Positions 3,939-54,665 of a DNA stretch of 64,000 bases are shown in pieces. A program made the translations under genes and the position numbers. Each line of letters opens with the position of its first letter. Within the stretch, counting starts at the first letter, position 1. A model generated the notes under the pieces. That model was not told the DNA's origin. It was given only the letters and a program-made list of their open reading frames with translations, and did not search any database. Where the stretch lies: NCBI GenBank assembly GCA_944388605.1, contig CALXJJ010000003.1, positions 3,091-67,090 on the forward strand, read 5' to 3'. This DNA is from an uncultured Clostridia bacterium. GTDB lineage: Bacteria; Bacillota; Clostridia; TANB77; CAG-508.

Positions 3939-4886
3939 TTAGTCTTCCTCTTTAGCGAAGTCTAATCCTAAAGAATGTAATTTATTTGTAACTTCATCTA
4001 AAGATTTCTTTCCTAGATTTCTTACTTTCATCATATCTTCTTCTGTCTTTGTTGCTAAATCTTCTACTGTTGAAATTCCAGCTCTTTTTAAACAATTGAA
4101 AGATCTTACTGATAATTCTAAATCTTCTATTGACATTTCAAGTACTTTTTCTTTCTTAGACTCCTCTTTTTCAACCATTACTTGAGTATTTCTTGCAGTT
4201 TCTGATAAATCAATAAATAATTCTAAATGTCCAACCATTACTTTAGCAGCTAAGCTTAAAGCTTCATATGGTTTTAAACTTCCATCTGTCCATACCTCTA
4301 TTGTTAATTTATCATAATCTACCATTTGACCAACTCTTGTGTTTTCAATTGAATAATTTACTTTCTTTACAGGTGTAAATATAGAATCTATTGGTAGAAC
4401 ATCTATAGCCTGATCTGGTTTTTTATTTTTTTCTGCCACATTATATCCTCTACCCATTTCGGCAGTCATTTCCATTTTCAATGAACCACCTTCTGCAATA
4501 GTAGCTATATGTAAGTCTGGATTCAATATTTCCACTGTTCCATCTGTTATAATATCACCTGCTGTCACTTCACCTTCACCTGAAAAGTCTATTCTTAAAA
4601 TTTTTTCTTCATTTTTATCAAGTTTTAACCTTACCATTTTTAAATTTATTATAATTTCTGGAACATCTTCTACAACATTTTCAATACTTGAAAATTCATG
4701 CATAACTCCATCTATTTTTACACTTGTTATAGCACTACCTGGTAATGAAGAAAGTAATATTCTTCTTAATGAGTTTCCTATTGTTACTCCATAACCACGC
4801 TCTAATGGCTCACATACAAATTTTCCATAATTTTTTTCATTGTCCATCTCTAAGCATTTTATATTTGGTTTTTCAAATTCTATCAT
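3939..4886 (-). CDS. rpoA: DNA-directed RNA polymerase subunit alpha
   Basis: 315 aa; MIEFEKPNI...[21 protein letters not shown] is the canonical alpha N-terminal domain. It lies between rpsD and rplQ. Confidence 0.95.
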
Positions 4887-4914
4887 TTTAACCTCCCTAA
4901 ATTATCTATAAACA

Positions 4915-5541
4915 TTATTTAGAGTATAATTCAACTATTAAATGTTCTTCTACTGGAATATCAATATCTTCTCTTGATGCTAATCTCACAACTTTGCCAC
5001 TTAATTTATCTACATCTTTTTCTAACCAAGTTGGAACTGGTCTTGCTGAATTCTCTTCAACATTTAATTTTATAGCTCCATTATCTTTTCTTATTTCTCT
5101 TACAGATATAATATCTCCTGCTTTTACTAGATATGATGGTATATCTACTTTGTGACCATTTACTTCAAATGCCCCATGTGTTACAAGCATTCTAGCTTGT
5201 GCTCTTGAAGCACCATATCCTAATCTATAAACAACATTGTCTAATCTACTTTCTAATATTTGAAGCAAAATTTCACCTGTTTTTCCTCTTGAATTAGAAG
5301 CCATATCAAAATATTTTCTAAATTGCTTCTCTCCTACCCCATAAAATGCTTTTGTTTTTTGTTTTTCTCTTAACTGAGTACCATATTCTGAAAGTTTTTT
5401 CTTTTTTTGTCCATTTTGACCTGGTGCGTAATTTCTTCTTGCAATACTACATTTATCTGTATAACATCTTGAACCTTTTAAGAATAACTTCTGTCCTTCT
5501 CTACGGCAAATTCTACATTGTTCATCTTTATATCTTGCCAT
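4915..5541 (-). CDS. rpsD: 30S ribosomal protein S4
   Basis: 208 aa; [31 protein letters not shown] zinc ribbon plus an S4 domain. Confidence 0.95.
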
Positions 5542-5990: not shown

Positions 5991-6359
5991 TTATTTATTT
6001 TTTGCTCTGCTTACTAATTTTCTAGGACCTTTTCTTGTACGAGCATTAGTCTTTGTTCTTTGTCCTCTAACTGGAAGACCTCTTCTATGTCTTAATCCTC
6101 TATAACATCCTATTTCTGTCAATCTTTTTATATTTAGAGCAACTTCCCTACGTAAATCTCCTTCTGTCTTATAACCTTCCATTGCAGTTCTTATAGCTTT
6201 TACTTGATCATCTGTTAAATCTTTCACTCTAATATCTGGATTTACTCCAGCTTCTTTTAATATTTTTTGTGAGCTTGGTAATCCTATTCCATATATATAT
6301 GTTAATCCAATCTCTACTCTTTTTTCTCTAGGTAAATCTACTCCTGCTATACGAGCCAT
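5991..6359 (-). CDS. rpsM: 30S ribosomal protein S13
   Basis: 122 aa; [26 protein letters not shown]. Confidence 0.95.
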
Positions 6360-6539
6360 TTTTTAGCACCTCCAAAGTTTATTTTATTAATTATGTTGCT
6401 TTTTATTGCTAATGGTGAAATGCACTAAAAGGACCTTAGTCATTAACATTTCAAAGCATGTATATAAACACAAATCCAAGTTTCGTTAATATTAACGAAT
6501 TCAGCCGCTACTTTGATTTGTGCTTTTAACTTTTTTATA

Positions 6540-19026: not shown

Positions 19027-19350
19027 CTATAATTTTATTTCTATATCAACACCTGCTGGCAAATCAATTTTCATTAAACTGTCAACTGTTTTTTGTGTTG
19101 GGTATAAGATATCTATAACTCTTTTATGTGTTCTCATTTCAAATTGCTCTCTTGAGTCTTTATCTTTATGTGGAGAACGTAAAATTGTTACTATCTCTTT
19201 TTCTGTTGGTAATGGAATAGGACCTGAAACTTTTGCTCCTGTCTTTTTAGCAGTATCTACTATCATTTCAGCAGACTGTTCTAAAACTCCATGGTCATAA
19301 GCTTTTAATCTTATTCTAATCTTCTCACTTTCTACTTTGTTTGTTTGCAT
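19027..19350 (-). CDS. rpsJ: 30S ribosomal protein S10
   Basis: 107 aa; [21 protein letters not shown]. It is the first gene of the S10 operon. Confidence 0.95.
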
Positions 19351-19565
19351 TTTGCATTTCCCTCCTTCTATATTTATGGTCGGAAGCTATAAACGCACCC
19401 TGGTGTTTCTTTTTTTACCAATATAAAATCCAAAGTCTGCATGATAACTTTGGGATAAGTGCTTTTTTTATTAAACTTACCGCCTGGTCTAAGCCATAAC
19501 ATACTCCATAGGAGTTCCCTCCAACCTCAGTTGTAGCCACATCCTACTTCATCGCTTTTTTCATG
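19351..19565 (-). promoter_or_regulatory. structured ~215-nt 5' leader of the S10 operon, with a GC-rich hairpin cluster around 19380-19560
   Basis: The region is GC-elevated and contains several hairpins (CCAAAGT...ACTTTGG; GGATGTGGCTACAACTGAGGTTGGAGGGAACTCC on the minus strand). It lies between the consensus promoter and the rpsJ RBS, so it is probably a ribosomal-protein autoregulatory leader. Confidence 0.5.
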
Positions 19566-19572
19566 CTTTTAT

Positions 19573-19601
19573 ATTATACAATGCTTTTAGACTTATGTCA
19601 A
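19573..19601 (-). promoter_or_regulatory. consensus sigma-A promoter for the S10 operon (TTGACA - 17 nt - TATAAT, with TG immediately upstream of the -10)
   Basis: On the minus strand the sequence reads TTGACAtaagtctaaaagcattgTATAAT. Confidence 0.6.
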
Positions 19602-19819
19602 TACAAAAAATAAGAAATTTTCATATTTATATTTACTATCACTGGTTTAATCTATTATATTTTATTTATTATAAAAATAAAATTTATCTCATCTACAAGT
19701 TTTGACATTTTTTTCAAATAGTACATGCTATAATTAAAAAAATAGTTCCATTATACTAACAAATCAATTAACAAATATGAAATAAAATTTATTCTTCATA
19801 CAAAATAGGAGTGATACAT

Positions 19820-19966
19820 ATGAGGATAGAATTATTAATTTTAAAAAACAGAGCAAAACTTGAGCATATGATAAAAATAGGAGCTCCCTATGAAAAAATA
19901 TTAAAACAAAGTCAACTGTTAGATAAATACATAAATGAAAAAATGAAAAGGTTAACTTCAAAATAG
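19820..19966 (+). CDS. Spo0E-like sporulation regulatory phosphatase family small protein (48 aa); not in the supplied ORF track
   Basis: An RBS (TAGGAGTGA) precedes the ATG. The product is MRIELLILKNRAKLEHMIKIGAPYEKILKQSQLLDKYINEKMKRLTSK. It carries the Spo0E-family signature (helical hairpin with SQxLDxxI; compare SQELDxLI in Spo0E). It is transcribed divergently from the S10 promoter. Confidence 0.55.
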   Translation: MRIELLILKNRAKLEHMIKIGAPYEKILKQSQLLDKYINEKMKRLTSK

Positions 19967-20057: not shown

Positions 20058-21650
20058 CTATTTAATTCTTTCAAATATTGGTTCTATATTTTCAATATCT
20101 TTACATTTTTTTACTTGTATATATTCCCAGCAACATTCTTCTATTTCTAAGAATCTCCTAACTTTTTTAGATGACTCAGGCATAAAAGGTTCATATAAAT
20201 TAGATAAATTAGCAATAAGGTTACAACATGTATATATAGTATTATTAAATTCTTGTATATTCTCTTTTTGCTGTTTCCATGGCTGTTTTTCCTCATAAAA
20301 TTTATTTCCTTCTTCAACTAAATCTCTAATTAATAAAACTGCCTTTTTAAATTCCAAATTTTCAATTGCATTTCCCACATCTTTATATGCTTTTTCTATT
20401 AATTCCTTCATATATTTATTCATAACACCATCAGGTATTTGTTTTAATCCTTTATATTTTAAAGTTCTATTTATGAGATTTCCATATTTATTAACAACTT
20501 CCGCATTACTTATAGCAACAAATTCTTCAATAGAAAAATTACTATCCTTCCTTTCTGGTCCATTTCCTATTAGATAATATCTAATCATATCAGAATTATA
20601 ATTATCTAGCATCTGTCTTATTGTTATACCATTTCCTTTGGATTTAGATATTTTCTCTGAATTTATATTTAAGTATTGTGTTGCGACCATATAATCTGGC
20701 AATTTATAATCTTCTTCCAACGCTAATAATAAAGCTGGTAATATTATAGTATGAAAGGTTATATTGTCTTTTCCATGTGCCATAAAAATCAAATTATTTC
20801 TGTCATTTTTCCAATAATTTTCCCAGTTTAAACCTTTTTCAATACAAATTTTTTGACATGCTGTAATATATCCTAAAACAGCCTCTATCCATACATACAT
20901 TTTTTTGTCTTCAAATCCTTTAATAGGTATATCGATTCCCCATTCAAGATTTCTGGTTACTGCTTTTTCTGGCAAACCTTCTCTTAAATACTTTTCAGTT
21001 TCATTTTGAGAACTAATTCTCCAATTTTTTTTATTTTTTTCAACATATTTTTCAATCTTATTTTGTAATTTTCCCAATGCTAAATATAAATTCATATTTT
21101 CTTTTTGAACTGTTTCACTTCCACATGTCTGACATTTAGCCCCAATTAAGTCTTCTAACTTAGGCTCATATCCACAATCACACATATCTCCTTTAGTTTC
21201 TTTTCCACAAGAAGGACAAGTTAAAATCAGCTCTCTGTCTGCCACAAACTTATTGCAATGTTCGCAAAAAGGTTGTAAATCTTTTTTAGCATAAATATAT
21301 CCATTATCATACATCTTTTTAAACAACTCTTGTACTTTCTTTTTATGAAATTCATCTTCTGTTTTAGTATATAAATCATATGAAAACTGCATGTCATTAA
21401 AGCAATCTGTAAATTCTTTGTGATATGATTCTGATATTTCTTTAGGAGTTTTGTTTTCTTTTTTTGCTCTAATTGTAATAGGAGTACCATGGCAATCCGT
21501 TCCAGAAACATAAAGTACATTATCTCCAATTTGTCTATAATATCTTGCAAGAACATCTCCAGAAATTAATCCTGCTACATGTCCAACATGTAAAGAATTA
21601 TTAGCATAAGGCCATGCTCCTCCTATTAATATATTTCTTTTATTATGCAT
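20058..21650 (-). CDS. metG: methionyl-tRNA synthetase, short form (530 aa, no C-terminal EMAP/tRNA-binding domain)
   Basis: HIGH motif (SLHVGHVAG), KMSKS-type motif (KISKS) and the CxxC...CxxC zinc knuckle of the MetRS connective peptide. Confidence 0.85.
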   Translation of the reverse strand: MHNKRNILIGGAWPYANNSLHVGHVAGLISGDVLARYYRQIGDNVLYVSGTDCHGTPITIRAKKENKTPKEISESYHKEFTDCFNDMQFSYDLYTKTEDEFHKKKVQELFKKMYDNGYIYAKKDLQPFCEHCNKFVADRELILTCPSCGKETKGDMCDCGYEPKLEDLIGAKCQTCGSETVQKENMNLYLALGKLQNKIEKYVEKNKKNWRISSQNETEKYLREGLPEKAVTRNLEWGIDIPIKGFEDKKMYVWIEAVLGYITACQKICIEKGLNWENYWKNDRNNLIFMAHGKDNITFHTIILPALLLALEEDYKLPDYMVATQYLNINSEKISKSKGNGITIRQMLDNYNSDMIRYYLIGNGPERKDSNFSIEEFVAISNAEVVNKYGNLINRTLKYKGLKQIPDGVMNKYMKELIEKAYKDVGNAIENLEFKKAVLLIRDLVEEGNKFYEEKQPWKQQKENIQEFNNTIYTCCNLIANLSNLYEPFMPESSKKVRRFLEIEECCWEYIQVKKCKDIENIEPIFERIK

Positions 21651-21947
21651 TTTTATTCCCCCTTAATTATATATTATTACTTAAATGCAGTGCATTTTTA
21701 ATACACTACTATTTTTATATTTATTCTGTAATTTCTATATCTTACTATATAAAATTTCTCATCCATAAAATAATTCATTCTATTTAATATTATATTCAAT
21801 TATCTTAATTTTTTCAATAAATTTTTAAATTTGGCAAATATATATCACACTTTACTGATAAATATATGCTTTAAAATACCAAACTATAGTTTATAATTTA
21901 ACATAAATTTTTAAATTTGGCAATGCTAGTTGGCAAATTTTTATTAT

Positions 21948-22106
21948 ACAATAGGAAAGTTATCCTTTCCTATTGTATAAAAGTCGCTACGCTCTAACGA
22001 CTGCACACAATTTTACTTGCGTAAAATTGGCTTAGGAACAAATTTACTAAAAAGCCAACGAGAAAATATTAAATTAGTACAAATTTTAAGGCTTTCCGAT
22101 TTGTTC
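21948..22106 (-). repeat. mosaic intergenic repeat/promoter module upstream of metG (X module GAACAAATCGGAAAGCCTTAAAAT plus Y module CTTTCCTATTGTATAAT); other copies at 31216-31272 and 32396-32475
   Basis: The reverse complement of 22081-22106 is identical to 31216-31241. CTTTCCTATTGTATAA(T/A) recurs at all three sites, in sense orientation upstream of metG, asd and dapA. Confidence 0.6.
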
Positions 22107-22207
22107 TTTTATTGGATTGTTTTCTAATCCATAGTATAATTTATTTAATTTACATATCTCCTCCTTCATTCACCCCAAAAATCTGATGTGCAGATAGAGT
22201 AAAGTAT

Positions 22208-22253
22208 AAAGAGTATACCGAAAAGTTTACATAAACTTTTCGGTATACTCTTT
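22208..22253 (-). terminator. perfect 21-bp stem hairpin (probable terminator of the minus-strand small-ORF transcript)
   Basis: AAAGAGTATACCGAAAAGTTT-acat-AAACTTTTCGGTATACTCTTT. Confidence 0.45.
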
Positions 22254-39182: not shown

Positions 39183-40664
39183 ATGGAGGAAAATTTAAAA
39201 TTATATCAAGATATAGCTAATCGTACTGATGGTGACATTTATGTTGGAGTTGTTGGTCCTGTCAGAACTGGTAAATCTACTTTTATTAAAAGATTCATGG
39301 ATTTATTAGTAATTCCTAATATTGACAATGAATTTAAAAAGCAAAGGGCTTTGGATGAATTACCTCAAAGTGCGTCAGGTAGAACAATAATGACAACAGA
39401 ACCTAAATTCATCCCTAATGAAGCTGTAGAAATTACAGTTGGTAATAATATAAAGTTAAAAACAAGAATGGTTGATTGTGTTGGATATTTAGTAAATAAT
39501 GCTATAGGATATTTAGAAAATGATATGCCTAGAATGGTAAAAACTCCTTGGTCAGATGAAGAAATTCCTTTTGAAAAAGCTGCTGAAATTGGCACTAAAA
39601 AAGTAATAGAAGAACATTCTACAATTGGAATTTTAATAACAACTGATGGTAGCATTACAGATATTCCTAGAGAAGATTACATAGAAGCTGAGGAAAGAGT
39701 TGTAAGAGAACTAAAAGAAATAAATAAACCTTTTATAATTCTATTAAATTCTAATAATCCTTCTTCTGAATATACAAGAGCATTATCAATAAAGTTGGAA
39801 GAAAAATATCAAACTTCAGTTATTGCTACTGATTGCTCTAATTTAACAATAGAAGATATCAATTCAATATTTTCTAAAATACTATATGAATTTCCTATTG
39901 AAAGAGTTAATATAAAATTACCAAAATGGGTTGATGCTCTTTCAAATGAGCATTGGTTGAAACAAGAAATATTTACAGAAATAAAAAATGCATTTAATGA
40001 TATTAAAATCTTAAAACAAGTAGATAATGCAATAGATCTATTGCAAAAAACAGAAGTTATTGAAAGATCTATATTAGATGAAATTATTTTAGGAAGTGGA
40101 TTTGTTAATATTTCTATAGAATTAATTGATACTTTATTCTATAAAGTATTAACAGAAATTTCTGGAGTTGAAGTAACTAATGAAGGAGATTTATTCTCTA
40201 CTATAACTTCTTTGGCACAAACTAAAAAAGAGTATGATAAAATATCATATGCATTAAATCAAGCAAAATCTGTAGGCTATGGAATTGTTACTCCTTCTAT
40301 GGATGAATTGATATTAGATGAACCAGAAATGGTAAAACAAGGAACTCGCTATGGAGTAAAATTAAAGGCTCGTGCTCCAAGTTTACACATTATTAAAGCA
40401 GATATTGAAACTGAAGTCTCTCCTATTGTAGGTTCAGAAAAGCAATCTGAAGAATTAGTTAATTATTTACTTTCTGAGTTTGAAAGTGATCCTAAAAAGA
40501 TCTGGGAATCAAACATATTTGGAAAAAGTTTGCATGAATTAGTAAATGAAGGTCTTCAAAATAAATTATGTAAAATGCCAGAAGATGCACAATATAAATT
40601 GCAAGAAACATTAGAAAGAATTGTAAATGAAGGTAGTGGTGGCTTAATCTGTATAATACTTTAA
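39183..40664 (+). CDS. spoIVA: stage IV sporulation protein A (spore coat morphogenetic ATPase)
   Basis: 493 aa; the N-terminal Walker A GVVGPVRTGKST and overall SpoIVA architecture. Confidence 0.9.
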   Translation: MEENLKLYQDIANRTDGDIYVGVVGPVRTGKSTFIKRFMDLLVIPNIDNEFKKQRALDELPQSASGRTIMTTEPKFIPNEAVEITVGNNIKLKTRMVDCVGYLVNNAIGYLENDMPRMVKTPWSDEEIPFEKAAEIGTKKVIEEHSTIGILITTDGSITDIPREDYIEAEERVVRELKEINKPFIILLNSNNPSSEYTRALSIKLEEKYQTSVIATDCSNLTIEDINSIFSKILYEFPIERVNIKLPKWVDALSNEHWLKQEIFTEIKNAFNDIKILKQVDNAIDLLQKTEVIERSILDEIILGSGFVNISIELIDTLFYKVLTEISGVEVTNEGDLFSTITSLAQTKKEYDKISYALNQAKSVGYGIVTPSMDELILDEPEMVKQGTRYGVKLKARAPSLHIIKADIETEVSPIVGSEKQSEELVNYLLSEFESDPKKIWESNIFGKSLHELVNEGLQNKLCKMPEDAQYKLQETLERIVNEGSGGLICIIL

Positions 40665-40830
40665 TCATTAAATTTCGCTCCTTAAATAACTTCTCACTAT
40701 TCTTATGGTTTAAGTTTTCTCTTTTAATTTTATAATAGTAAAATAAATCTCAATTTGCAAGATTTATTTTACTATTTTTGTATATTTTTTCTTTTTACGG
40801 GAAAAATTATTTTAAAAGGAGATTTATACT

Positions 40831-42559
40831 ATGAATATAAAAAACTTTTTAAAACAAGTATTCTATCCCCAGGATTCTAAAGATTATGATTTTACTTTAC
40901 CAGAAACAACAAATCCTAGGCAAAATTTAGAAATTGATGATGAAAAAGTCAAAACAAATTATGATTCTCAAAGTGTTGATGAAGATATCTACAAAAATAC
41001 ACAAGAAATATTTCCAAGTGTAGATGTAAATTATGAATATATTAAAGTAAAATACAACACATTAATAAATAGTGATATTGTAACTAGAAAGTTTATTTTA
41101 AATATAAGGAACAAACAATATAAAGCTTTTATACTATACATCGACGGTATGGTTAATACTACAACTATTAATGATTTTATTCTAAAACCACTAATGCTTA
41201 AAAATTCTTCTAATAGCTTTGATGGTGAACAAAACAGAGTAGTTTCTGAAGCAATTAGTAATAATATAACTGTTCGCAGAATAAAAAAATTTGATATATC
41301 TGAATATGTCTCAAATTGTTTAATACCTCAAAACAATGTTACTGAATGTAAAGATTTTCAAAAAGCTATATCTGGTACAAATTCTGGTGATTGTATTCTT
41401 TTTATAGATACACTTAATATTGCATTTGATATTGAAGTAAAAGGTTTTGAAAAAAGGTCTCTTGGCGAACCTAACAATGAAATTGTAGTACGTGGTGCTC
41501 AAGTAGCTTTTACAGAAACAATTCGTACTAATACTTCTCTTTTAAGAAGATTTGTAAATAATGAAAATTTAATTATAGAAAATGTAGATGTTGGTAAAAT
41601 TAGTAAAACAAAATGTGCTATTTGTTATATTAAAAATATTGCAAATTCAGATTTAGTAGCAGAAGTAAAGTATAGAATTAATAATCTTAATATAGATTAT
41701 TTAATTTCTTCTGGTAAACTAGAACAATTAATTGAAGATAAAAATTCTACACTTCCACAATTAATAGCAACTGAAAGACCTGATAAAGCTACAAATTATC
41801 TAATAGAAGGTCGTGTTGTTATAATAGTAAATGGTAGTCCATATGTCTTAATTGCTCCAGCTGTGTTTACAGATTTTTTAAATTCACCTGAAGATCTTAA
41901 TTTAAAATATCAGTTTTCTAATTTGTTAAAATTTATTAGAATTATAGCTTTTATATTAACTCTATTATTACCTGGTATATATATTGCAATTACAAACTTT
42001 CACCAAGAATTTATACCTACAGAATTATTATTTGCTATTGTTGCTTCAAGAGAAGCAGTACCATTTCCTATAATATTTGAAATTTTTCTTATGGAATTTT
42101 CTTTTGAATTAATAAGAGAGGCAGGACTTAGAGTTCCATCACCTATAGGTCCTACTGTTCGGAATTGTTGGTGCTCTAATTTTAGGACAAGCAGCAGTGG
42201 AAGCAACAATTGTTAGTCCTATACTAATAATTATTGTCGCTATAACAGGAATAGCATCATTTGCTATACCAGACTTTTCATTGAGTTTTCATGCAAGAAT
42301 CTCTAGATTTATTTATATTATTTTTGGTTATATTGGTGGATTTTTGGGAATTGGAACAGCTATATGTATTCACATATTTATTTTAGCCAATATGAAGTCA
42401 TTTGGTGTAGAATATCTCTCTCCTTATTTTTCTAAAGCAAATAGTCTTAATAAAGGTATGATATTATCTCCTATATGGAAAAGACAATTCAGAGCTAATT
42501 TTTTGAATACAAAACGTAAAGAAAAACAAGATGATATTAGTATGAAATGGAAAGCATAA
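40831..42559 (+). pseudogene. gerAA: GerA-family germinant receptor A subunit, split by a 1-nt insertion (extra C at ~42160); either a pseudogene or a sequencing error
   Basis: ORF 40831-42216 ends ...SPIGPTVRNCWCSNFRTSSSGSNNC*. The shifted frame continues ...GIVGALILGQAAVEATIVSPILIIIVAITGIASFAIP (track ORF 42197-42559). Together these reconstitute the conserved A-subunit C-terminal membrane region. Confidence 0.75.
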
Positions 42560-42584
42560 TTTTTAAGAAAGGATCGATTTTTTC

Positions 42585-43688
42585 ATGAATTATTCCAAAA
42601 TTGGTACTTTAGAAGCTATTGGTATTGTTTTTATAGTATTATGTAATCATTTAGTTTTAAATATGCCTCAAAGCATTATAAGTTCAACAGGTTCTGCTTC
42701 TATATTAAATATAGCATATGTATTTTTATTAGCTCTTTTATTTATATTATTAGTAATTAAACTTTTTAAAAATTTTTCTACTTATGACATTATAGATGTT
42801 TCTGAATTTTTAGGTGGAAAATTTTTAAAAGTACTAATATCTATTATTATATTATTATATTTTATACTTACATCTTCTACTCTAATTAGAAACTTTAGTG
42901 AAGGACTAAAAATAATATATTTTACTAACTATCCTATTTATGCTATATTATTATTTTTTATAGTCTCTGCTACAATATGTAACTATTTTGGTAGTAAAAC
43001 TGTTATAAGAGCTAATTTGCTTATTATTCCAATTATTTTTATAAGTTTATTGTTAGTGTTTATCGCTTCTTTTAATAATATTATACCACAGAGGGCACTA
43101 CCAATTCTAGGATATGGTAGCTATGAAACTTTTATACAGGGTATATCTAACATATTTTCTTTTAATGGCTTATTTTACTTATTTTTTATACTCCCTATGC
43201 TTGACAAAAAAGAAAATTTTTCAAAAATATCTCTAATTTCTATTATAATTATAGGAGCAATAATATTAATTTGTATAACTTGCCTACTATTAGCATTTCC
43301 TTTTATAACTAGTTTTAAAGAACTCTCACCATTATATTTAACTATAAGATATACTCATTTTGGAGATTTTTTTCAAAGACCTGAATCTTTATTCATATTA
43401 ACATGGATAATTTCAATGATATCATATATAAGTGTATCATTAATGTTTTCGATAAAAATATTTAAAAAATTAACTAATATAGAACATGAAAAATATATGA
43501 TATTACCTTTTAGTGCTATTTTATTTATTTTTTCTTTAGCTCCAAAAGGTATGGCTGAAATTAGCTTTTTAGAAAATACAGTATATAAATGGTTAACGAT
43601 TTTTATTACTTTTGTTTTGTTTTTATTTATTTTAATATTTGCAAATATCAAATATAGAAGAAAAAAATCTAAGGAGGCTCAAACTTAA
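42585..43688 (+). CDS. gerAB: GerA-family germinant receptor B subunit (APC-superfamily 10-TM permease-like)
   Basis: 367 aa polytopic membrane protein in the A-B-C operon order. Confidence 0.8.
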   Translation: MNYSKIGTLEAIGIVFIVLCNHLVLNMPQSIISSTGSASILNIAYVFLLALLFILLVIKLFKNFSTYDIIDVSEFLGGKFLKVLISIIILLYFILTSSTLIRNFSEGLKIIYFTNYPIYAILLFFIVSATICNYFGSKTVIRANLLIIPIIFISLLLVFIASFNNIIPQRALPILGYGSYETFIQGISNIFSFNGLFYLFFILPMLDKKENFSKISLISIIIIGAIILICITCLLLAFPFITSFKELSPLYLTIRYTHFGDFFQRPESLFILTWIISMISYISVSLMFSIKIFKKLTNIEHEKYMILPFSAILFIFSLAPKGMAEISFLENTVYKWLTIFITFVLFLFILIFANIKYRRKKSKEAQT

Positions 43689-43689
43689 T

Positions 43690-44988
43690 ATGCAAACTTT
43701 TAAAAAAATTTTAGTATCTATTATATTATTACTTTTGTTTATATTTATTTTTACTAATCCATATTTAAGTTTTCATAATATAGATAGCTTAGCATATGTA
43801 GTTGCACTTGGTTTAGACGTAGGAGAAACTAATAATCTTAAATTAAGTTTACAATTATATAAGCCTACTGAATCTTCTGGTAGTTCGAGTGGTTCTTCTC
43901 AAAGTTCAAATTCGTTAATAAATTCTGTTGATTGTTCATCTATTAGTTCTGGTATTAATTTATTTAATAGTTATATTAGTAAACAAATATCGCTTTCTCA
44001 TTGTAAAGTCATAGTAATCTCTGAAGAATTAGCAAAACAAGGTATTTCGAAATATCTATATACTCTTGTAAATAATGTGCAAATTGGTTCAGATTGTAAT
44101 ATAATAATTTCTAAATCTGATTCATATTCATTTTTAGAAAATTCAAAACCTACAGTTGAAAAATTGATTGCTAGATATTATGAGTCTGCTCCTATGTCTA
44201 GCTTATATACGGGTTTTACAGAAGATGTTACACTTGGAGATTTCTTTTCAGATTATACTGATTCTTTTAAACAACCTCACGCAATCCTAGGTTCTATAAA
44301 CACTTCTCAAACTCAAGATAATGTAACATCTTCTAATAATGCTAAAACAAATACTAGTTCTTCTACCGCTTCTATTACTGATAACACCAATTATGAAAAT
44401 GACAATAAAGATAGTGATTATATTGCCGGTGAAACACCTATAACCTCTGAAAATAATATAGAAAGCATGGGACTTGCGGTTTTTTACTCAGATAAACTTG
44501 TTGGTGAATTAAATGCTCTCGAAACATTATGTCATATGATAGTAGTAAATAAAATTCAAACAGCAGAAATTCAGATTTCTAGCCCTGTTAACCTTAATGA
44601 AAAAATAGATATCTCTTTAAAACAAAATCTTGCTCCTAAAATATCTTTAAAAATCATTAATAATACTCCATATATTAAAATAAATCTTAATATTAATGCC
44701 CGAATACGATCTATGGATGAAAACTCTGAACATTTAAATGAAGACAATATTTTAAAAATAGAAGAATCGGTTAATAAATATTTAGAAGAAAACATTTCTG
44801 CTTACTTGTATAAAACAGCTAAGCAATTTAATTCAGATATTGTTGGCTTTGGCAAATATGCTGTTGGATATTTTAAAACACTAGATGAATGGCAAGATTA
44901 TAATTGGCTATACAATTATAGAAATTCATTTTTTGATGTAACAGTAAACTCTGATATTAAGTCTACTTATCTTTTAATGGATAATTAA
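43690..44988 (+). CDS. gerAC: GerA-family germinant receptor C subunit (lipoprotein-like), with Ser/Thr/Asn-rich low-complexity inserts
   Basis: The start is placed at MQTFKKILVSIILLLLFIF. The GerAC-type N-terminus (...AYVVALGLDVGE...) follows, with SSGSSSGSSQSSNS and TNTSSSTASITDNTNYEND inserts. Confidence 0.7.
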   Translation: MQTFKKILVSIILLLLFIFIFTNPYLSFHNIDSLAYVVALGLDVGETNNLKLSLQLYKPTESSGSSSGSSQSSNSLINSVDCSSISSGINLFNSYISKQISLSHCKVIVISEELAKQGISKYLYTLVNNVQIGSDCNIIISKSDSYSFLENSKPTVEKLIARYYESAPMSSLYTGFTEDVTLGDFFSDYTDSFKQPHAILGSINTSQTQDNVTSSNNAKTNTSSSTASITDNTNYENDNKDSDYIAGETPITSENNIESMGLAVFYSDKLVGELNALETLCHMIVVNKIQTAEIQISSPVNLNEKIDISLKQNLAPKISLKIINNTPYIKINLNINARIRSMDENSEHLNEDNILKIEESVNKYLEENISAYLYKTAKQFNSDIVGFGKYAVGYFKTLDEWQDYNWLYNYRNSFFDVTVNSDIKSTYLLMDN

Positions 44989-54228: not shown

Positions 54229-54477
54229 TTTTAATAATTAGCCTCCTTTTTTTGTATAATTGTTCAAAATATTCTCCACTTTTATTATCATTTTATCTAA
54301 ATATATAATGTTCATCTTTTTAAGCATTAAAATTATAATTGTTTAATTTTGATAACATTATAACACAGTTTTTTAAACAATTCTAGTTTATCTGTAGCTT
54401 TTCTCTACTTTTTAATATTTGCAATATTAAATTAATATATGGTAAGAAAAGTATAAAATTATAATACAAAAAAATAC

Positions 54478-54665
54478 CCCACGTTTAAGCCGTAAGATGA
54501 ATGAAATTTTAAGGACCTGCTTGCACAGGTGGGTGTCTTGTTGAATGCTTATGGGCTTCTTACTACTAAATAGTGTAAGCTTGCACGCCACATTCAAAGT
54601 CGGACTCCCTTTTAATATTTGTTGGTTCTAAAATTCCAGTCTACACGCACTTCGTAGGGAAATTA
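54478..54665. ncRNA. unclassified GC-rich structured element (orphan ncRNA or leader candidate)
   Basis: ~45-50% GC in a ~27% GC background. Hairpins include CCTGcttgcaCAGG, CTTACta...taGTGTAAG and long-range GAATG...CATTC / GCCG...CGGA pairings. No ORF overlaps it, and the downstream gene has its own consensus promoter. Confidence 0.35.

Follow-up and report, generated by a model that had tools for sequence, protein, structure and literature searches.

The genome segment analysed here, 64,000 nucleotides of a contig from an uncultured Clostridia bacterium (the whole of which we call the window), contains a short open reading frame (ORF) of 48 codons between the S10 ribosomal-protein operon and a gene resembling methionyl-tRNA synthetase (MetRS). 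This ORF is a genuine, conserved gene. Its product appears Spo0E-like by motif, size, predicted fold and continuity with a wider family, while being marginal by the Pfam threshold for a single sequence. The best explanation of the findings, which we put at a probability of about 60%, is that the gene would specify a Spo0E-family brake on phosphorylated Spo0A (Spo0A~P), with direct control by Spo0A~P as the ancestral state of the family and with a position beside the S10 operon that is incidental.

Evidence for a conserved gene

The predicted product of the ORF is MRIELLILKNRAKLEHMIKIGAPYEKILKQSQLLDKYINEKMKRLTSK, which contains the sequence SQLLDKYINE with serine 31 and aspartate 35. The original prediction, made from the window sequence alone, described a 48-amino-acid (aa) ORF divergent from the S10 operon, and its coordinates, its motif and the strands of the two units were confirmed (Table 1). 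The good ribosome-binding site (RBS) of that prediction is likewise in place, and its counterpart, (A)GGAG(T)TGAT, aligns in nearly all loci that carry a homolog. A GTG codon at 19811, which would lengthen the protein by 3 residues to 51 aa, is an unlikely start as it overlaps the RBS. The ORF had also been described as unannotated. This is true of its name and function, since the public gene calls are unnamed and have no Pfam domain attached, but gene callers do recognize it: about 90 public contigs from many samples already carry a gene call for the identical 48-aa protein.

A word-indexed search with this protein recovered 13 clusters of proteins of 36-60 aa with 54-98% identity. When a profile of these 13 clusters was used in a HMMER search, 223 representatives of 50%-identity clusters were found at E<=1e-3, and 63 of them at E<=1e-10. 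Assemblies, species-representative genomes and viral contigs together yielded 42 loci that bear a homolog. In 41 of these the ORF is intact, and in the remaining locus it was not recoverable from its first ATG. Among 28 distinct homologous coding sequences (CDSs), compared over a core of 37 codons, the proportion of synonymous differences is saturated (mean pS 0.73) against a mean pN of 0.22 for nonsynonymous differences. The ratio of nonsynonymous to synonymous substitution rates (dN/dS) has a median of 0.16 over the 198 pairs with a finite estimate, all of which fall below 0.5, and codon position 3 is the most variable.

These data bear directly on the simplest alternative, that the ORF is no gene and merely arose by chance in the AT-rich DNA between genes. 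It has only 48 codons, its surroundings have a G + C content of about 20%, and an antisense ORF of 65 codons (19764-19961) overlaps it. Nevertheless, homologs that remain intact despite synonymous saturation, the low dN/dS and the 223 clusters of the family refute this idea, and we consider it hardly credible. The concentration of variation in third codon positions, the conservation of the RBS and promoter across homologs, and a confident AlphaFold2 model argue in the same direction.

Family resemblance and predicted fold

The only Pfam family matched by the 48-aa protein is PF09388 (SpoOE-like), with E = 3.4e-4 and residues 6-43 aligned to positions 4-42 of the 42-position profile. All 13 close relatives match the same family (best 2e-5), as do 106 of 149 wider relatives at E<=0.01 (best 8.9e-11). 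Since both sets match PF09388, the subfamily grades into undisputed Spo0E-like members. The kinship with Spo0E that had been proposed is thus supported, also by retention of the SxxxD motif and by the predicted hairpin. An alignment of the 149 sequences has six residues conserved at 90% or more (L14, I18, I27, Q30, S31, and D35). Two of these, S31 and D35, are invariant in the alignment of 13 sequences, and they are the S and D of the SxxxD signature.

AlphaFold2 predicts a hairpin of two helices (residues 2-20 and 24-47) with a mean predicted local distance difference test (pLDDT) score of 95.9, and the SxxxD motif falls inside the second predicted helix. Published criteria for the Spo0E family are an SxxxD motif, a length of 40-100 aa and two helices (PMC11115286); the 48-aa length and predicted two-helix antiparallel hairpin fall within these limits of size and fold. 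The Asp of the motif is critical in Bacillus subtilis and has been modelled at the interface with Spo0A in Clostridioides difficile (PMC11115286).

In one subgroup of the family (loci L012, L013, and L025; gene at about 5992-6210), the protein reaches 73 aa through an acidic extension of 20 residues at its C-terminus (...KNDGYLEKEGRELVNGKFVELEND). The gene lies near radical-SAM and S-adenosylmethionine (SAM) synthetase genes, and the distal one of its two upstream Spo0A boxes (0A boxes) is degenerate (AAAGACA).

A conserved promoter with tandem Spo0A-type boxes

The upstream DNA of the homologs carries a characteristic arrangement of sequences. In 32 of 35 distinct upstream regions, a tandem repeat TTCGACA-N3-TTCGACA is found with at most 3 mismatches in 14 positions, at a fixed distance from the CDS. 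In most of these regions, exactly 21 nt separate the boxes from an extended -10 element, TGnTATAAT. When 30 distinct promoters are stacked without gaps, information is concentrated in a T-tract, the distal box, the proximal box, the TG and the -10, and is near zero between them. Of the 30 distal boxes, 22 read TTCGACA without a mismatch; the proximal box is more variable, and the TG occurs in the same register in 28 promoters. The DNA 5' of the boxes does not align among homologs, which indicates a conserved footprint and not a recently shared cassette.

The same tandem-box site precedes the gene in three of four more distant subfamilies tested, the fourth being inside an operon. The footprint of T-tract, tandem boxes and TGnTATAAT lies about 70 nt upstream of the Spo0E-like start at L001-L042, L092, L096, and L097. 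Apart from these, the 42 loci together contain just 3 tandem sites with no more than one mismatch. Two loci, L019 and L020, have a second, perfect tandem 0A site, TTCGACAacaTTCGACA, at 6494 on the plus strand, about 135 nt 5' of a 243-aa gene adjoining the Spo0E-like gene, and in L038 a tandem 0A site with one mismatch is present at 4624 on the minus strand. The elements at these three loci may hold more genes that are controlled by Spo0A.

Read on the other strand, TTCGACA is TGTCGAA, the Spo0A box. Dimers of Spo0A~P bind TGTCGAA boxes, and bona fide sites consist of two boxes 3 bp apart, of which often one matches the consensus perfectly and the other does not (PMC2731898). Upstream 0A boxes activate sigma-A RNA polymerase at the spoIIG and spoIIE promoters of B. 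subtilis (PMC12090719). If the -10 element is set at positions -12 to -7, the boxes of the family span about -50 to -34, and in this placement, which is that of Spo0A-activated sigma-A promoters, we infer direct control by Spo0A~P, most likely activation. At spoIIG and spoIIE, as here, 0A boxes lie at or upstream of the -35 region with an unusually long spacing to the -10. The -35-like element of spoIIG is about 22 bp from its -10, and the corresponding distance in the family described here is 21 nt. The comparison has limits, as the boxes in the window are degenerate and the extended -10 (TGn) of the family could allow basal transcription without Spo0A. Taken together, the promoter architecture suggests that the family is most likely under direct control by Spo0A~P, with activation, and hence negative feedback, as the likelier sign and repression as a possible one.

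This type of control would differ from that of B. subtilis spo0E, which is indirect: Spo0A~P represses AbrB, and AbrB represses spo0E (PMC3627974). None of the papers searched describes 0A boxes in the promoter of a spo0E gene.

Phage and conjugative contexts of the relatives

The surroundings of the homologs vary widely. The commonest relative, P0005, occurs on 79 contigs in a phage region, where its neighbours are genes for a small terminase, a ParB-methyltransferase, SAM synthetase, an HNH endonuclease and a cytosine methylase. The gene is carried by 7 viral contigs in IMG/VR, 4 with the P0005-type phage neighbourhood and 1 with an integrase nearby. Other loci contain genes of conjugation or mobilization: a VirD4-type coupling protein together with DUF5697 and DUF6100 proteins (L009-11 and L022-23), a TraG P-loop protein (L018), or a MobA/VirD2 relaxase (L028, with which L027 and L034 have neighbouring gene clusters in common). 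Distant family members adjoin a coupling protein of a type IV secretion system, a Mob_Pre relaxase or an IS66 transposase. Outside the species with the S10 neighbourhood, all loci with hallmark genes place the gene in phages or in conjugative or mobilizable elements. A minority of loci are seemingly chromosomal, with glycosidase, copper ATPase, FtsX or ComEC genes as neighbours, and tblastn searches of GenBank phages and PLSDB plasmids gave no close relative.

In 12 loci the gene is accompanied by a second one (cluster c0; for example, at 4744-5013 on the minus strand in L001), which encodes a protein of 85-118 aa directly downstream on the opposite strand. The protein has no Pfam or PHROG match and occurs on phages as well as on conjugative elements, but not in the window. 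It may be a functional partner of the Spo0E-like protein.

Genes of the spo0E type have been described on phages before, and are abundant in catalogues of gut phages; Spo0E homologs of temperate phages of Firmicutes were proposed to hijack the timing of host sporulation (Bernard et al., 10.1101/2021.07.15.452460; MBE 2023, PMC10075063). Many relatives of the window gene are similarly on phage contigs, whereas the window copy itself is chromosomal. The reported phage genes were picked by an adjacent quorum-sensing receptor, which is their presumed controller, while here the boxes of the host Spo0A appear to be in control. Two features of this clade are possibly new, namely its promoter with tandem Spo0A boxes and its occurrence on conjugative elements in addition to phages.

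The window copy and its promoter

The copy in the window has no mobile-element gene beside it. It appears to be a transcription unit of its own, with a predicted promoter, leader, RBS and candidate hairpin terminator (Table 1). The predicted boxes and extended -10 keep the register common to the family, and the composite motif ATCTACA-agt-TTTGACA-N18-TGc-TATAAT (19691-19734) has 1 match in the window and 0 in 100 shuffles. The inferred transcription start would lie near 19741, which would make the leader about 79 nt long. At the other end of the gene, the hairpin spanning the stop codon has a folding energy of -16.2 kcal/mol (z = -3.8), matched by none of 200 shuffles. With an A-run before it and T-rich DNA after it, it is a plausible two-way terminator for the convergent genes.

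Table 1. Coordinates of the Spo0E-like gene, its predicted signals and its neighbours in the window.
Feature	Position	Strand	Remarks
rpsJ (ribosomal protein S10)	19027..19350	-	Heads the long S10 operon; divergent neighbour; PF00338 on the identical gene in L098-L105
S10-Clostridia leader RNA, weak match	19477..19560	-	RF03136, 26.4 bits vs gathering score 35.1, E = 0.046, full model length
S10 operon promoter, TTGACA-17-TATAAT, perfect (12/12)	19601..19573	-	Promoter of the neighbouring operon
Degenerate tandem predicted 0A boxes, ATCTACA-agt-TTTGACA	19691..19707	+	21 nt 5' of the -10 hexamer
Predicted extended -10, TGcTATAAT	19726..19734	+	In the register common to homolog promoters
Ribosome-binding site, AGGAG	19807..19811	+	8 nt 5' of the ATG
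Spo0E-like CDS, 48 aa	19820..19966	+	ATG at 19820, TAG at 19964-19966; SxxxD = S31-Q-L-L-D35
13-bp hairpin spanning the stop codon	19945..19977	unstranded	Candidate bidirectional terminator of the Spo0E-like ORF and the convergent MetRS gene
MetRS-like gene, 530 aa	20058..21650	-	Convergent neighbour; tRNA-synt_1g and Anticodon_3 domains

The boxes of the window copy are the poorest among the 30 distinct promoters, and its distal box is the only one without GACA. Relative to its relatives, it also has about 55 extra nt between the -10 and the RBS. Decay of the boxes and lengthening of the leader suggest that the Spo0A dependence of this copy has probably been weakened. The simplest reading is that of a solo gene, captured or kept in the chromosome of one species, in which the dependence on Spo0A is being eroded.

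The same features could be expected of a stranded remnant of a mobile element, that is, an intact yet neutral passenger with a decaying promoter. Phages and conjugative elements carry most relatives, the window copy has no further mobile-element gene beside it, and its weak boxes and expanded leader would fit such an origin. However, the ORF, RBS, extended -10 and terminator are all intact. The exact protein also recurs on those roughly 90 contigs from many samples, a point of low weight because only 7 of 708 aligned columns vary within the species, which is too little to test selection. We regard a neutral remnant as quite improbable and prefer a captured or retained gene that may still act.

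Relation to the S10 operon

The original prediction placed the Spo0E-like gene and the principal ribosomal-protein operon under one bidirectional control region, through which translational capacity would be coupled to commitment to sporulation. The two units are indeed divergent across an AT-rich spacer of 469 bp between rpsJ and the ORF, and the arrangement appears fixed in the species: the order L23-L4-L3-S10, ORF, MetRS is present in all 8 places shown from 22 contigs with the exact protein, and again in L007 and L008, which are from the same species (98-100% identity). The promoters, on the other hand, are separate. From the -35 element of the S10 promoter to the nearest 0A-like box is 89 bp, so that the back-to-back core promoters do not overlap, and we found no element common to both. 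About 175 bp lie between the inferred start sites, and the 0A-like boxes are at about -125 to -140 relative to the S10 promoter. Furthermore, neither rpsJ nor this MetRS gene was found near the gene in any of the 40 other homolog loci. Conversely, 42 metagenome loci with orthologs of the MetRS (55-81% identity) contained no rpsJ and no Spo0E-like ORF within the retrieved flanks of <=3 kb, and had no other window gene in common. In all, 49 metagenome loci were reached through the MetRS gene, and neither rpsJ nor a Spo0E-like ORF was present at any of them.

The adjacency to the S10 operon is therefore probably an accident of gene order in a single species, and the gene comes with a conserved promoter of its own whatever its surroundings. 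With no such pairing elsewhere and with separate promoters, the proposed coupling is left without comparative or structural support, and co-regulation of ribosome synthesis and sporulation through a shared control region seems very improbable. The incidental placement of a gene with a promoter of its own is the reading that we retain.

Two side observations concern the neighbouring genes. The weak match to an S10-Clostridia leader lies directly downstream of the S10 promoter, and a terminator-like hairpin (19453..19430, minus strand) precedes rpsJ, so that the region 19430-19601 resembles a leader of the attenuator type. No T-box leader was seen upstream of the 530-aa MetRS-like gene (20058-21650), which might have been relocated or be an additional copy.

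Sporulation genes of the host

The window encodes SpoIVA (39183-40664) and a GerA-type germinant receptor (40831-42216), which identify the host as an endospore former. In this region (39183-44988, plus strand), spoIVA is followed by the GerA-family germinant receptor gene and adjoining ORFs. All 27 genome matches to the family are uncultured Clostridia of the gut type.

Proposed mechanism and its alternatives

The closest functional model is the Spo0E of C. difficile, a 53-aa protein of two helices, with a critical Asp in its SxxxD motif, that represses sporulation by contacting the receiver domain of Spo0A (DiCandia et al. 2024, PMC11115286). As judged from the published description, the window protein resembles it in size, predicted fold, SxxxD motif and class of host. 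Neither a tandem 0A-box promoter nor an association with mobile elements was found for C. difficile Spo0E in the papers searched. In the bacilli, Spo0E, YnzD, and YisI of B. subtilis and BA1655 and BA5174 of B. anthracis (structures 2BZB and 2C0S) are helical-hairpin phosphatases that act on aspartyl-phosphate and are specific for Spo0A~P. Their signature is SQELD (SRDLD in 2BZB) against SQLLD in the window, the third residue of the motif being L or K rather than E. At 85 aa, B. subtilis Spo0E is also longer than the window protein, which lacks a C-terminal tail.

By analogy with these proteins, the 48-aa protein would dock on the receiver domain of phosphorylated Spo0A, where D35 of the SxxxD motif would promote loss of the phosphate or block the site. 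Levels of Spo0A~P would fall, and entry into sporulation would be delayed or prevented. In the ancestral circuit, Spo0A~P would directly control its own antagonist through tandem boxes 21 nt from the -10. Where the family is carried by phages or by conjugative or mobilizable elements of gut Clostridia, the element could thereby keep its host from sporulating. The window copy, chromosomal and fixed in one species, would be a member of this family in which the boxes have decayed and the leader has lengthened.

A number of observations weigh against this explanation. On PF09388 the window protein scores 21.0 bits, under the gathering score of 23, so the Pfam check suggested for the original prediction formally fails for the single sequence; we give more weight to the matches at the level of the family, which override it. 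A scan of the 48-aa protein against NCBIfam gave no match. Foldseek comparison of the model with the Protein Data Bank (PDB) returned generic helical hairpins, coiled coils of RNA polymerase among them, all with E>1, in which helices of the CsoR/FrmR type rank first and the Spo0E-like NMR structure 2c0s is 21st (template modelling score 0.81); the fold is too generic to discriminate. The top PDB match of the profile of 149 sequences is the B. anthracis Spo0E-like protein 2bzb, which aligns SQkLDkyIN opposite SRDLDKLIN, but the match is not significant (E 0.42), and a PDB sequence search with the profile of 13 sequences found only an irrelevant designed binder (E 0.55). These structure and PDB-sequence searches are compatible with Spo0E-like kinship and carry no weight. 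The boxes in the window mismatch the consensus at 3 of 14 positions, with the CG core lost in both, and bare tandem boxes with 3 mismatches occur in the window at about the frequency of chance (6 found, 2.4 expected). A six-frame search for the signature of the Spo0A recognition helix found no spo0A in the window, and the presence of Spo0A in the host is assumed from its sporulation genes. Finally, C. difficile Spo0E also acts through RstA on motility and toxin, so Spo0A may not be the sole partner of such proteins (PMC11115286).

The last point leads to an alternative in which the protein has the Spo0E fold and its main partner is not Spo0A~P, being instead another response regulator or a regulator of the RRNPP type, as RstA is for C. 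difficile Spo0E; or the protein might serve the mobile element in some way that has nothing to do with entry into sporulation. Spo0E-like proteins do occur in species that neither sporulate nor move, and the control of toxin and motility by C. difficile Spo0E is independent of Spo0A (PMC11115286). The marginal scores of the subfamily on PF09388 and the form of its motif, SQ(L/K)LD and not SQELD, could be read in the same way. Against this, the tandem Spo0A-type boxes of the family promoter link it with the Spo0A circuit. Moreover, both this host, which has sporulation genes, and those of the relatives are Clostridia, and the S and D of the phosphatase motif are precisely the residues that are invariant. 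An alternative partner is thus conceivable and, in our judgement, unlikely, and a brake that acts on Spo0A~P is the explanation we favour.

Other features of the window

Beyond the MetRS-like gene is a stretch of 1.9 kb (21651-23540) without an ORF of at least 100 aa, in which the local G + C content is 0.37 compared with about 0.26. On its minus strand is a 77-aa fragment (22421-22654) whose hydrophobic N-terminus recalls a pilin or pseudopilin and which is possibly a decayed gene. The stretch is followed by a tRNA-Trp gene (23541-23615). Elsewhere in the window there is a clear 6S RNA gene at 54472-54663 on the minus strand (Rfam RF00013, 104 bits).

Biological implications

The formation of spores governs persistence and transmission between hosts for many gut Clostridia, and the factors that set the levels of Spo0A~P in clostridia are still poorly defined. 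The family described here adds an unnamed group of Spo0E-type proteins of about 50 aa that standard domain thresholds miss. Mobile elements that interfere with sporulation have a precedent in the Rap phosphatases, which are encoded on phages, plasmids and ICEBs1 and drain phosphate from the sporulation phosphorelay, postponing sporulation of the host. Rap phosphatases are large tetratricopeptide-repeat proteins that act on Spo0F~P and are regulated by Phr peptides; they are unrelated to the proteins described here, and the parallel is one of functional analogy and not of homology.

A broader proposal, which we put forward tentatively and at somewhat less than even odds, is that this clade of mini-Spo0E proteins may constitute a portable anti-sporulation module, in which Spo0A~P switches on its own antagonist, mobile elements keep their hosts vegetative, and the window holds a captured copy. 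If this is true, a one-step negative feedback would replace the Spo0A-AbrB-Spo0E relay of Bacillus, and hosts that remain vegetative would stay usable for replication or transfer of the element. In that case the window copy, captured by the chromosome, would be losing its Spo0A boxes beside the strongest growth-phase promoter of the cell. Taken by itself the window is more ordinary, with a small gene for a putative sporulation regulator that happens to adjoin the S10 operon. The frequent carriage of its relatives by phages and conjugative elements suggests that mobile elements may tune sporulation in the gut.

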